Source: Chlamydiota bacterium (lineage in GTDB: Bacteria; Chlamydiota; Chlamydiia; Chlamydiales; Rhabdochlamydiaceae). From it: a DNA stretch of 48,712 nucleotides. The stretch is taken from contig JAZKAC010000014.1 in the NCBI GenBank assembly GCA_040389325.1, positions 1 to 48,712 on the forward strand, read 5' to 3'. Positions 43,201 to 45,817 of the stretch are shown here, one piece after another; within the stretch, counting starts at the first letter, position 1, and every line of letters starts with the position of its first letter. The notes under the pieces are model-generated. The model saw nothing but the letters and a program-made list of their open reading frames with translations, searched no databases and was not told the origin of the DNA. Made by a program: the position numbers and the translations under genes.

Positions 43201-45817
43201 CATAGATGCTCTAGGTTGCCGGACGCAGGTGCTTACAAACTATTTCTACAAGAATGCTCTTGGACAAAATGTCTTAAAAAGAACTCTCATAAACCCTCTT
43301 GGAACTCAAGTTGAAACGGAATTTGATGCTTTACAAAGAGTTCATATCATCACGAAAAAAGAAGCTGATGGTACCTTACTCTCTTCACAAAGAAACTTCT
43401 ATGACTTAGTCGGTAACCTCTGCCGTGAAATCCATGAAGAGATTGTCGACGGAGAAATTTTTGGCTCTAAAACGATCAGACGGTTTTATGGACCTATGGG
43501 AAGACTTAAGGAAGAAATTGAAGCTGAAGGATCTTTACAAGAGAACAAAACTTTATTTTTTTATAATTCTAAGGGACAACTCAGCAGTAAACAAACAAAA
43601 GGAATTACAACCTCATATTACTATACGGCTCAGGGCCTTGTTCGCAAAATTGAAGTGTCGGATGAAAATAAAAAAATAGCAATCTCTAACACCTACCAAT
43701 ATGATGTAAGCGGGAATGTCACCTCCGCAAAAGCCTTAAATGACATAGAAATAACAAGAGACTATGACGGATTCAATCGCCTGATATCCGAATCCGTATC
43801 AAGCGCCGCTGATTTTCATATCATTAAATATTCGTACGATCAAAAAGATAGACTTACTGCAATAACTCTCCCCGATAAGTCCAAGATTATCTACACCTAT
43901 GATGCCGTGTTCGGAAAAAAAATCGAAAGATTTTCTTCCGAACAAAAACTTCTCTACGCTCATACTTATGACTCTTATGACCTGCAAGGAAGGATTCTTC
44001 AAGAAACCTTAGTCGCAAACTTAGGCTCTCAAGACCTCCGATATGACCTGCTCGGCAATAAAACATATATCTGTAATCCTTTTTATAAAGAGCACTGTAA
44101 AAGAGATGCTCTCGGTAGAATTTATGAAGTACAAACAAACGATGCTCTATCCGAGTATCGCTACAACGGTCTTTCTCAACTTACTTTAGAAAAGAAAACA
44201 ACATCTCGCACATATATCTATGACTCTTTAGATCGTCGTATCAAAATAGATGGATGCGATCTAACGCATAACTCTCTAGACAGACTGCTAAAAATCTCCA
44301 AAAATGACAGCACCAAGGCAGAACTCTTCTATAATTCTCGAGGCAGTTTGCTTAGAAAGGTCATCGACGGTAATACGACTCTATTAACAAATAATTTCCT
44401 GCAACAACTCACTTCTATTAAAAAAAATAAAAACCATTACAGTTTTGCCTACGACCCCTTTGGCCGAATTGCAGTAAAACGATCTTTTGATGATAAAGGA
44501 AAGCAAAAGTTTCTTCTACGATACTTTTACATCGGAAATGAAGAAATCGGGTCTCTTGGAGAAGCAAACTCTATAAAGACTCTTAAAGTCTTAGGAATAA
44601 ACGGTAATACACTTTCCCAAAAAGCCGTTGCTTTTGAACTCCATAACAAACTCTACGTCCCCCTGTATGACATGGCAGGGAATGTGGCAGGGTTGGTCAA
44701 CTCCAACACAAAGTCCGTCATCGAACGCTATGAGTATACCGCTTTTGGAGAAGAGACCATCTATAACGAATCGGGAGAAAAAATCGAGAATTCATCAGTG
44801 AATAATCCCTGGCGTTTTGTAGGAAAACGCAATCAAGAGGGACTTATTTGCTTTGGATTACGTTTTTATGATCCCGAACTCGGCAGGTGGACGAGCCCCG
44901 ATCCCTCAGGTTTTGTTGATGGAGCCAACCGCTATGCCTACCTTCATAACAATCCTTTAAATTATTTTGATCGTTTCGGTCTTGCCTCAGAATCACGCAA
45001 TGATTTTGAAGGGTATTTCTATGGGGACGTAGAAAATCATTGCTTTTGTGCAACCCACCGCACTTGTAAGCGAGGTGGCGATATACGAAGCTCAAACGCT
45101 CCCCCACCTAAAGTTTCCTATAATGACCGCTTTGAATCTAAACATACTATTAGTTATGGCAGGGAAAAAGCAACATACTACGAACCTTCTAAAATTTTTG
45201 ATTTAAGCGATCTAGAGACTATTGACTCCCCTAACATAGGAATCGGATGGATCAACGGCATTAATAATACGTACGCAGAGTCTAGGGAAAGCGCATTATA
45301 CCTTTCCAAACTATCTCAAGGTTACAACATACATGCGGTATACAACGCAACCCATGGAGCCTCAGCAGATGTCAAAGAGGCTAAACAAGGACTTAAGCAC
45401 ATAGCCACAACTCCCGTTAGACTATTACACAAATTATGGAATGACTTTTTTGACAACTCCTCTGAAGAAGCTACATTTTTAATGATTTGCCACAGTCAAG
45501 GAGCCATCCACGTCAGAAATGCCCTCCTCGATTACCCTCCGAATCTCAAATCTCGTATCACTGTTGTAGCTGTTGCTCCCGCTGCCTATATCTACCGAGT
45601 ATCTTGCGCTGGCGCAACCCACTATAGAGCAAGCCGACTAAGAGATCCTATCCCTAGAATAGATCAACAAGGAGCTAAAAGAGAAGGTGATAGCATTATA
45701 GAACTAACTTCCGCTCCTGGGGCTCCATTTTTTGATCACCCGATTAATAGTCCAACATATCAACAAGACATGTTAATTCGAATAGCAAAATATACTAAAT
45801 CATCAAAAAGGAAATAA
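40265..45817 (+). CDS. RHS/YD-repeat polymorphic toxin with Sec signal peptide and C-terminal alpha/beta-hydrolase (lipase/esterase-like) toxin domain
   Basis: 1850 aa. The signal-like N-terminus is MLAKVFLRFPYRIFLLLFLSFSPILASYS. A DUF6531-like start reads VVNVITGEYFEAAEDLSI..PLILQRFYSN. Dozens of YD repeats are present (YEYDHLGR, YDPLGRV, YQYDVSGN, YSYDQKDRL, YAYDPFGR). The RHS core end is FGLRFYDPELGRWTSPDPSGFVDGANRYAYLHNNPLNYFDRFGL (a PxxxxDxxGL boundary ending at 44983). A 277-aa tip follows, with WINGINNT, a nucleophile elbow CHSQGA (Ser1744 at 45494..45496), then RDPIP and FFDHP. Confidence 0.9.
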   Translation: MLAKVFLRFPYRIFLLLFLSFSPILASYSPALLPCTESDPDAFIQHVVNVITGEYFEAAEDLSITAPSPLILQRFYSNRDYLTGTQPGGWRIFPERFLVIGKDRLKTSYSRAFTGGRSGGIFSFFGKINEEGFSENPLKIRIAQDAIGMCNTSTGEISGQTNHQNDLLHSKGNLCELLLGDGTRYIYEQVQNLPSDLLGEELIPVIALQVLEPKYYKLVQENLPNGNYLFFSYTEKGHLASIEMKNSKQSKILAWIRFTYLFNDSKCTLHITTSEEKTVLYHLEKVNGCYQLKEVFGSHIIPVCYEYTNGLLTRKNLPEGRYSEIEYYKDGKVKALKSPNSWDGHPEVTHSFSYESECTEVFNASNIKTSYRYNERKELSSIETYDNFGQPYRIDRKYFGKTPTDAGLLLAKTTEDSTGKIHSYRSFIYDPSGNIREERVYGNLTGNPNVFLEVNSEGLLLNPHEDECSIKKFTYSQDGFNLLIQIGDCKNNTTSLAYKPKTNLLAKKILCSNTEEYDYDDDPINHETKSFFYYYNEDAARTKIIETDGWAKEEKDIASSSRKKVTAITPKDTLPGVGLPLSTEEKIVDLQKKKEAFVKRHVNSYDNQCLCLSLDTYGSDGVHAFSEVWTYNHLGQVLTRVDGLGRVIKQSYDLLGNLEYISIPHENKTISLGYDLRNQPTSSIESRGDGVFSSHSSYDLQGRKNSSTDSFGNTTTYEYDFCDRVIKITHPTVWNEKEEAICPIFTYTYDIFNNVTSVTDPEGYVTHTSHNLRGDPTKITYQDGSFELFKYDPEGSLHRSLSREKIITVYEYDHLGRKSYKEVSTAGANGIELFLYGHRYTYNASYCIQEEITQANEDGYWELTKKYTYNIKGLLTLEDTTGDRSAPRQVQMKYDPLGRVNETRTRFSTKEKDYSVESFTHDLLRNILKKEISDSKGNVCLIKGFSYNALGQCILEYEDDPNKPSLQIIYDDHLEPKAYIDALGCRTQVLTNYFYKNALGQNVLKRTLINPLGTQVETEFDALQRVHIITKKEADGTLLSSQRNFYDLVGNLCREIHEEIVDGEIFGSKTIRRFYGPMGRLKEEIEAEGSLQENKTLFFYNSKGQLSSKQTKGITTSYYYTAQGLVRKIEVSDENKKIAISNTYQYDVSGNVTSAKALNDIEITRDYDGFNRLISESVSSAADFHIIKYSYDQKDRLTAITLPDKSKIIYTYDAVFGKKIERFSSEQKLLYAHTYDSYDLQGRILQETLVANLGSQDLRYDLLGNKTYICNPFYKEHCKRDALGRIYEVQTNDALSEYRYNGLSQLTLEKKTTSRTYIYDSLDRRIKIDGCDLTHNSLDRLLKISKNDSTKAELFYNSRGSLLRKVIDGNTTLLTNNFLQQLTSIKKNKNHYSFAYDPFGRIAVKRSFDDKGKQKFLLRYFYIGNEEIGSLGEANSIKTLKVLGINGNTLSQKAVAFELHNKLYVPLYDMAGNVAGLVNSNTKSVIERYEYTAFGEETIYNESGEKIENSSVNNPWRFVGKRNQEGLICFGLRFYDPELGRWTSPDPSGFVDGANRYAYLHNNPLNYFDRFGLASESRNDFEGYFYGDVENHCFCATHRTCKRGGDIRSSNAPPPKVSYNDRFESKHTISYGREKATYYEPSKIFDLSDLETIDSPNIGIGWINGINNTYAESRESALYLSKLSQGYNIHAVYNATHGASADVKEAKQGLKHIATTPVRLLHKLWNDFFDNSSEEATFLMICHSQGAIHVRNALLDYPPNLKSRITVVAVAPAAYIYRVSCAGATHYRASRLRDPIPRIDQQGAKREGDSIIELTSAPGAPFFDHPINSPTYQQDMLIRIAKYTKSSKRK

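Follow-up and report, generated by a model that had tools for sequence, protein, structure and literature searches.

A DUF687 serine hydrolase as the predicted C-terminal toxin of a probably Sec-exported RHS protein in an environmental chlamydia

We analyzed a 48,712-nucleotide stretch of DNA from a Chlamydiota bacterium of the Rhabdochlamydiaceae (assembly GCA_040389325.1, contig JAZKAC010000014.1), referred to as the window below, and focused on an RHS/YD-repeat polymorphic toxin precursor and the gene that follows it. The rhs gene (40265..45817, +) is a single intact open reading frame (ORF) of 1850 codons. Its C-terminal tip is an α/β-hydrolase domain of the chlamydia-specific family DUF687 that retains the residues of a Ser-Asp-His triad, and the next gene (45818..46360, +) encodes a 180-residue predicted lipoprotein whose relatives accompany the tip in most related loci. 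On balance, we favor the reading that this environmental member of the Chlamydiota carries a gene for a Sec-exported RHS polymorphic toxin and the matching immunity gene, and that the hydrolase acts on an envelope lipid.

Translation of the intact 1850-residue frame placed the tip at 44984..45817 (+), where 277 residues (1574-1850) and the stop codon begin right after FDRFGL. A first-pass annotation of the window had delimited the tip in the same way and had read it as a lipase-like α/β-hydrolase from four motifs, all of which we recovered where it had put them: IGWINGINNT at residues 1660-1669, MICHSQGA at 1740-1747 with Ser1744 encoded by 45494..45496 (+), LRDPIP at 1792-1797, and PFFDHP at 1821-1826. 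For the structural analysis we numbered the tip from the residue after Leu1573, so that Ser171, Asp221, and His252 of the tip are Ser1744, Asp1794, and His1825 of the precursor. An AlphaFold2 model of the tip, built from an alignment of 51 relatives, had a mean pLDDT of 88.4 and a pTM of 0.84, with disorder limited to the first ∼43 residues. The tip consists of a linker of ∼65 residues and an α/β serine-hydrolase core of ∼210 residues, which is compact and has neither a lid nor an accessory domain in the model. According to DSSP, the core runs through strand 85-90, a helix, strand 116-120, two helices, strand 164-170, Ser171, helix 173-182, and strand 192-197, and continues with strand 210-216, Asp221, a helix, strand 238-241, His252, and helix 257-276. 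This is the canonical order β3-αA-β4-αB-β5-[Ser]-αC-β6-β7-[Asp]-αE-β8-[His]-αF. Asn1664-Gly1665 (the NG of WINGINN, tip N91-G92; 45254..45259, +) follow strand 85-90 and form the putative oxyanion-hole loop just after β3, while Ser1744 occupies the elbow C-H-S-Q-G-A between strand 164-170 and helix 173-182 as the putative nucleophile. The candidate acid, Asp1794 (45644..45646, +), lies in the loop after strand 210-216, and the candidate base, His1825 (45737..45739, +), lies in the loop after strand 238-241 and before helix 257-276. The topology of the model suggests that the three residues are adjacent in space.

When the model was compared with the PDB by Foldseek, 142 matches were found at E<1e-3. 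The top-ranking ones were IsPETase, Thermobifida and fungal cutinases, human APT1, esterase D, and XC6422 (E ∼1e-5, TM 0.36-0.44 over all 277 residues). A viral library yielded 24 more matches at E<1e-3, comprising DUF676, esterase, lipase, and LysB proteins with TM values of up to 0.52, and all named top-ranking matches in both searches are α/β-hydrolases. The cutinases, PET hydrolases, and APT1 resemble the tip in being compact and lid-less and in having an x-S-Q-G-(A/G) elbow, which reads GYSQGA in cutinase, GFSQGG in APT1, and CHSQGA in the tip. The resemblance is one of fold, since the tip has no detectable sequence or profile similarity to them (no PDB sequence match better than E=0.1) and the TM values reach only 0.36-0.44. 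Neither the tip nor the family profile retrieved a solved hydrolase relative from the PDB sequences; the only matches were to RHS cores and to the marginal HSKGA esterase 5d8m (E 0.1-0.5). Likewise, when the family profile was compared by hhalign with human APT1, whose sequence as used was 100% identical to 5sym_A, the probability was 0.08. From the model and its structural neighbors, we regard the α/β-hydrolase fold that had been read from the motifs as close to certain.

We then asked how the tip is classified. In a Pfam scan at E≤1, the only matches to the tip were DUF687, Hydrolase_4, DUF3089, and Palm_thioest. The match to DUF687 (PF05095) scored 50.1 bits against a threshold of 25 (E=2.2e-13) and aligned tip residues 78-217 with profile positions 29-164 of 537. 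The full-length DUF687 architecture of ∼540 residues with a transmembrane bundle is absent from the tip, which ends 26 residues past His1825 and has no hydrophobic segment. Because only profile positions 29-164 of 537 were matched and no hydrophobic segment is present, we assign the tip to PF05095 at the level of the domain only. A word-indexed search retrieved 82 relatives, and a search with a profile retrieved 527; the relatives were already annotated as PF05095. When 1.84 billion representatives were searched exhaustively with a profile, 2,691 clusters passed E≤1e-3, of which 804 also passed E≤1e-30. The hydrolase domain is always C-terminal in the best 150 of the 2,691 clusters, often in proteins of 1,650-1,970 residues. 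A scan of species-representative genomes identified 47 loci, and those that carry a label are chlamydial metagenome-assembled genomes (MAGs) except for two labeled Verrucomicrobia. These loci include members of the Rhabdochlamydiaceae (the closest, at 70% identity) and the Parachlamydiaceae as well as a Waddlia-labeled MAG, and a tblastn search of plasmids found no match. The suggestion that the tip might represent a new toxin-domain family thus did not hold, given the DUF687 score, the 2,691 clusters, and a published toxin signature that is described below.

To evaluate conservation we used 251 aligned family proteins that had been collected without reference to the triad residues. Ser is conserved in 99.2% of them, Asp in 99.6%, and His in 99.6%, and the residues around them follow the same pattern, with the oxyanion Asn at 97.5%, Gly1665 at 100%, and the elbow Gly at 98.8%. 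Trp152 of the tip is near-invariant as well. The three residues picked by the first-pass annotation are therefore the invariant ones (at least 99%) and stand at the canonical positions after β5, β7, and β8. We are very confident that Ser1744, Asp1794, and His1825 constitute an active triad.

This pattern bears on what has been written about the family. DUF687 was originally described as confined to chlamydiae, in CT326 and CPn0066/0069/0381/0882, which are predicted inclusion-membrane (Inc) proteins (PMC3048545), and our search of the literature on CT326 found nothing relevant besides that Inc survey. A 2024 survey placed DUF687 among the α/β-hydrolases and stated that all members are without catalytic residues and have six C-terminal transmembrane helices (PMC11878206). 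The window domain resembles the DUF687 proteins of the Chlamydiaceae in its score above the PF05095 threshold, in its place in a chlamydia-restricted family, and in its placement with the α/β-hydrolases. It differs from them in architecture, since the described proteins begin with the hydrolase domain and continue into about six transmembrane helices whereas an RHS protein carries the window domain as its C-terminal payload, and in that its clade retains the Ser, Asp, and His that the described members are said to lack. As judged from these alignments, the window clade contradicts the claim that every DUF687 member is without catalytic residues. We also noted proteins of ∼500 residues with the same C-terminal hydrolase in other chlamydial MAGs (our loci L039, L040, L042, for example 5041..6639, and L044-L049). 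In these, a conserved N-terminal domain is followed by a bilobed Inc-like hydrophobic segment of ∼35 residues, a Pro-rich linker, and then the hydrolase. Most of their genes have an immunity homologue next downstream, and no match of these short forms reaches Pfam DUF687.

The tip also agrees with a toxin domain defined earlier by comparative genomics. The signature of Tox-ABhydrolase-2 consists of NG, [DE], [KR], HSxG, D, and H (Zhang, Aravind et al. 2012, PMC3482391). In the tip these elements occur in the same order and are conserved, as N1664-G1665, D/E at positions 129/132 and R at position 178 of the tip, H-S-Q-G, D1794, and H1825. Zhang et al. recorded Tox-ABhydrolase-2 for chlamydiae, RHS-borne toxins, and Sec ('T2SS') export, with Imm-SUKH as the immunity partner; its substrate was described as unclear, no specific relationship to lipases was seen, and the chlamydial copy was without an immunity gene (PMC3482391). 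The window shares the setting of a chlamydial, RHS-borne, apparently Sec-exported toxin, and, compared by the published motif signature only, the tip is probably a Tox-ABhydrolase-2 as well. Unlike the version paired with Imm-SUKH, it is accompanied by a dedicated signal-peptide/lipoprotein partner that has no SUKH match. The first-pass annotation could not assign the tip to a named Tle family, and neither could we: the Pfam scan at E≤1 contained no DUF2235 (Tle1), Lipase_3 (Tle2), or other lipase family, and NCBIfam returned nothing for the tip. The likeness to the Tle1-Tle4/Tli pairs of type VI secretion systems (T6SS) is one of organization, namely a serine α/β-hydrolase toxin with a G-x-S-x-G-type elbow, an immunity protein outside the cytoplasm, and an immunity gene directly after the toxin gene, at times in arrays. 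The tip core is, however, far smaller than Tle1-Tle4 (∼210 residues) and is without their lid or accessory domain, and in place of T6SS, VgrG, and PAAR genes the window has an RHS protein with a Sec signal peptide.

The second line of evidence comes from the gene downstream of the tip. The ATG of 45818..46360 (+) directly abuts the TAA of the toxin gene (TAA-ATG), and inspection of its product, which opens MKKPSILVLLCITLIGCSS, revealed a signal peptide followed by a lipobox L-I-G-C. In MKKPSILVLLCITLIGC this L-I-G-C occupies residues 14-17, with Cys17 as the lipidation candidate, and fits the lipobox pattern [LVI][ASTVI][GAS]C. In ∼37 of 49 related loci, tblastn placed a homologue of this gene immediately after the tip, usually with an ATGA overlap of 4 nt. 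Among 48 full-length partner homologues, 45 have a hydrophobic N-terminus (signal peptide or anchor); a lipobox-like Cys is present in 20, and the rest carry a Cys-less anchor of the ...FTGF type. Since signal peptides, anchors, or lipoboxes occur in 45 of the 48 proteins, the immunity function would be exerted outside the cytoplasm. The downstream gene thus behaves as the cognate extracytoplasmic partner that had been proposed from the window alone. The partner protein itself has no relative in Pfam, in NCBIfam, or among PDB sequences, a profile built from 34 diverse homologues retrieved nothing from PDB or Pfam, and neither SUKH nor any other significant Pfam match was present in the protein and 33 homologues. 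A match to Poxvirus_B22R_C (19.6 bits, below threshold) was rejected as chance. The structure model of the partner reached a pLDDT of only 61.8 from an alignment of 10 close sequences, and its Foldseek matches are meaningless. As far as the alignments tell, the partner defines an unannotated family that is reliably linked to the toxin.

Partner genes also recur in groups. Tandem arrays of two to four copies are found in L019, L027, L035, L036, and L039, and the window has two copies. The second (46357..46894, +; ORFs 46357..46701 and 46661..46894) overlaps the first by ATGA and is 86% identical to it over the columns of a DNA alignment. It is a pseudogene, frameshifted by the 7-nt insertion TATTGAG at 46659..46665, and its 3' end has been lost from ∼46860 to an insertion element, where unrelated sequence abuts the minus-strand insertion sequence (IS)-like ORFs. 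An apparent toxin-immunity fusion in L003 was rejected because of a TGA stop at positions 6829-6831 of that locus. L010 contains, downstream of its main pair, an orphan tip fragment (8072..9186) that covers tip residues 84-276 at 58% identity, is accompanied by an immunity gene of its own, and reads as a classic displaced RHS cassette. Taken together, we consider it highly probable that the tip and the product of 45818..46360 are toxin and immunity protein.

The remainder of the precursor has the organization of an RHS toxin. In the 1850-residue protein, whose length is in line with the 1827-1860 residues of 18 full-length homologues, a Pfam scan detected RHS_repeat at 115.6 bits. By inspection, residues 1 to ∼27 (40265..40345, +) are a predicted Sec signal peptide, MLAKVFLRFPYRIFLLLFLSFSPILA, followed by SY, with cleavage placed at ...SPILA/SY. 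DUF6531, the usual N-terminal domain of RHS proteins, follows at residues 46-100 (40400..40564, +; PF20148, 29.4 bits against a threshold of 24.1). A hydrophobic N-terminus likewise precedes the start of DUF6531 (TESDPDAF...VNVI.G.Y) in 20 of 21 full-length homologous RHS proteins. The RHS-associated core (TIGR03696, Rhs_assc_core, 74.4 bits in NCBIfam) spans residues 1500-1573 (44762..44983, +) and contains the presumed aspartyl autoprotease pair Asp1546 (44900..44902, +) and Asp1569 (44969..44971, +) in SPD(1546)PSG...FD(1569)RFGL(1573). A profile of relatives aligned these DPxG and D-x-x-G-L motifs with the PDB chains of TccC3 and YenC2 at an identical spacing of 23 residues. By analogy with TcC structures, we take Asp1546 and Asp1569 to be the catalytic residues, and autocleavage after Leu1573 is predicted. 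The YD-repeat shell, the C-terminal aspartyl autoprotease motif, and the encapsulated variable toxin are shared with the TcC/RHS cocoon toxins (TccC3, YenC2, and T6SS Rhs effectors). The window protein differs from these in having no TcA/TcB partner and no T6SS adaptor, in its N-terminal Sec signal peptide, and in a hydrolase payload with a predicted extracytoplasmic target. The YD repeats, the core with D-x-x-G-L, the variable tip, the immunity gene, and the orphan cassettes together place the locus, at the level of sequence, among the RHS polymorphic toxin systems.

Delivery looks Sec-dependent and T6SS-independent. We base this on the signal peptide in 20 of 21 homologues, on the absence of T6SS, VgrG, and PAAR genes from the 48.7-kb window, and on the absence of any conserved gene upstream of the rhs gene across 19 loci. 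The RHS bodies and tips have diverged together in most loci, with 40-52% and 50-58% identity to the window, respectively. In L027, L029, and L034, by comparison, bodies that are only ∼25% identical to that of the window carry tips that are 41-55% identical, which indicates that the tip has moved between scaffolds.

The data show the gene structure, the fold, the conserved triad residues, and the recurrent pairing with a signal-bearing partner; from these observations we infer autoproteolysis, catalytic activity, a periplasmic site of action, a lipid substrate, and a delivery route. The signal peptide would export the 1850-residue precursor, the YD repeats would form the usual shell, and the core with Asp1546 and Asp1569 would cut after Leu1573 and free the 277-residue payload. 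The payload would consist of a short Cys/His-rich linker and a minimal, lid-less DUF687 serine hydrolase with the triad Ser1744-Asp1794-His1825 and an oxyanion hole formed by Asn1664-Gly1665/Gln1745. On the periplasmic side of a target bacterium, the hydrolase would most likely attack a phospholipid or lysophospholipid of the envelope at its acyl-ester bonds, and in sibling cells the 180-residue lipoprotein would bind and block it in the periplasm. Action in the periplasm seems likely to us, and phospholipid is named as the substrate only tentatively. The labels 'lipase' and 'membrane-targeting', which the tip had received from its motifs, are plausible as predictions.

Several points weigh against this proposal. 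The enzyme activity and toxicity of the hydrolase family are predictions from sequence and models, and the adjacency of the triad rests on topology rather than on coordinates. The closest folds are generic esterases and thioesterases with modest TM values (0.36-0.52), and the model contains neither a lipase lid nor a membrane-insertion element; for these reasons the substrate can be called a lipid only as a guess. An RHS cage exported by Sec would also have two outer membranes to pass. The co-divergence of bodies and tips in most loci implies that the module is not shuffled rapidly. In the literature, the sole published comment on DUF687 is that it has no catalytic residues and probably serves as a scaffold (PMC11878206), and Zhang et al. 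left lipid action of Tox-ABhydrolase-2 open and suggested a host target for the chlamydial copy (PMC3482391).

A host target would make the tip an effector that is released in the inclusion or the host cell and hydrolyzes host lipids or, as an APT1-like thioesterase, deacylates host proteins, with the lipoprotein shielding the producer's envelope during periplasmic transit. The obligately intracellular life of the Chlamydiota speaks for this, as do the presence of APT1 among the best structural matches and the fusion of the hydrolase to Inc-like bilobed hydrophobic segments in other MAGs. Intracellular bacteria mostly direct toxins at their hosts, as Zhang et al. pointed out when suggesting such a target (PMC3482391), and the Chlamydiaceae DUF687 proteins are predicted Inc proteins (PMC3048545). 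Yet the partner genes occur in divergent tandem arrays and with orphan cassettes, which is the signature of polymorphic toxins used by bacteria against bacteria. Inside the producer the payload is already enclosed by the RHS shell, so that protection during transit alone would leave arrays of paralogous immunity genes unexplained. We consider a host-directed role unlikely. The same arrays bear on the possibility that the downstream protein confers no immunity and is instead a periplasmic, membrane-anchored helper (for instance, a lipase-specific foldase or an activator) that the hydrolase needs for folding or activation. Its gene is tightly coupled to the toxin gene in translation and its product is signal-anchored in the periplasm, and foldase genes likewise sit after lipase genes. 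In addition, a preprint reports that a Tli immunity protein is necessary to activate its Tle (bioRxiv 10.1101/2023.03.28.534661). Two to four diverged copies in tandem, and copies next to orphan tip fragments, are more easily reconciled with immunity than with a chaperone, and a payload is expected to fold within the RHS shell, so that we regard a helper function as very unlikely.

If the tip is an antibacterial periplasmic toxin, its substrate could still be something other than phospholipid, such as the acyl esters of lipoproteins or lipooligosaccharide, O-acetyl groups, or, for a serine peptidase, a peptide bond. The α/β-hydrolase fold is compatible with many chemistries, the tip is without a lid, and its best matches are cutinases, PETases, and LysB-type esterases, which act on polymer-linked esters. 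Zhang et al. also saw no specific tie of Tox-ABhydrolase-2 to lipases (PMC3482391). To our knowledge, on the other hand, the characterized periplasm-acting α/β-hydrolase effectors with lipoprotein immunity are phospholipases (Tle/Tli), and nothing points positively to any particular alternative substrate. On this evidence a non-phospholipid substrate appears quite unlikely. Lastly, the tip could be a catalytically dead binding or scaffolding module, as proposed for DUF687 on the statement that all members are without catalytic residues (PMC11878206). Ser, Asp, His, the oxyanion Gly, and the elbow Gly are all present, however, and are 98.8-100% conserved in 251 relatives, which is not the pattern expected of a pseudo-enzyme, and this explanation is hardly credible for the window clade. 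We therefore retain the proposal of an RHS toxin with an active, envelope-directed hydrolase and its own immunity gene.

Two further features of the tip involve cysteines. The linker that joins the RHS cleavage site to the hydrolase core contains a conserved Cys/His-rich motif, HCFCATHRTCKRGGD (HCxCExHRTCKRGGD; 45038..45082, +). Its residues C20, C22, H25, and C28 (tip numbering) are conserved in ∼26 of the sequences that have the linker region, all of them RHS-linked. The confidence of the AlphaFold2 model is low over this motif, which could be a metal-binding or disulfide element for release or translocation. Within the core, the cysteines at tip positions 169 (45488..45490, +) and 208 (45605..45607, +) are 92% and 97% conserved in the family, and the former stands two residues ahead of the nucleophile Ser171. 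A disulfide between Cys169 and Cys208 is possible and would fit an extracytoplasmic enzyme.

The other genes of the window, including rlmN, a fused glyQS, and hrcA-grpE-dnaK, fit a chlamydial chromosome. The α and β subunits of glycyl-tRNA synthetase are fused in one gene of 1006 codons (2119..5139), an arrangement typical of chlamydiae that agrees with the chlamydial assignment drawn from the RHS relatives. Between dnaK and the rhs gene, two overlapping 79-residue ORFs (39679..40004, -) each correspond to half of IS66 Orf2/TnpB and represent a frameshifted remnant. Two overlapping ORFs at 46891..48568 (-), one of 244 residues with Pfam DUF6399 and one of 342 residues without a Pfam match, look like one frameshifted transposase-like gene inserted beside the immunity array. 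Together with the IS66 remnant, this leaves debris of mobile elements on both sides of the RHS locus.

An RHS toxin with an α/β-hydrolase tip and an extracytoplasmic immunity protein is known in kind, and the module is common, with many near-identical counterparts among public chlamydial genomes. Our analysis gives the chlamydia-specific family DUF687 a concrete reading, that of a predicted active Ser-Asp-His esterase used as a toxin, and the clade with an apparently active triad runs counter to the only published statement, which describes DUF687 as catalytically dead. It also adds an immunity family that is reliably toxin-linked and was previously unannotated. Environmental chlamydiae hold many copies of this Sec-dependent RHS toxin-immunity module with no T6SS in evidence, and the abundance of such modules raises the question of whom obligate intracellular bacteria fight. 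One conjecture, which we offer as a long shot, is that the DUF687 hydrolase was originally an antibacterial toxin, active and directed at the envelope, that was exchanged inside host cells via Sec-exported, T6SS-independent RHS cages, and that it was later fused to Inc-type anchors and domesticated as a dead inclusion-membrane protein in the pathogenic Chlamydiaceae (CT326, CPn0066, and relatives). If true, this would mean contact-dependent warfare among chlamydiae within the inclusion and would give a family of orphan Chlamydia proteins a toxin ancestry.

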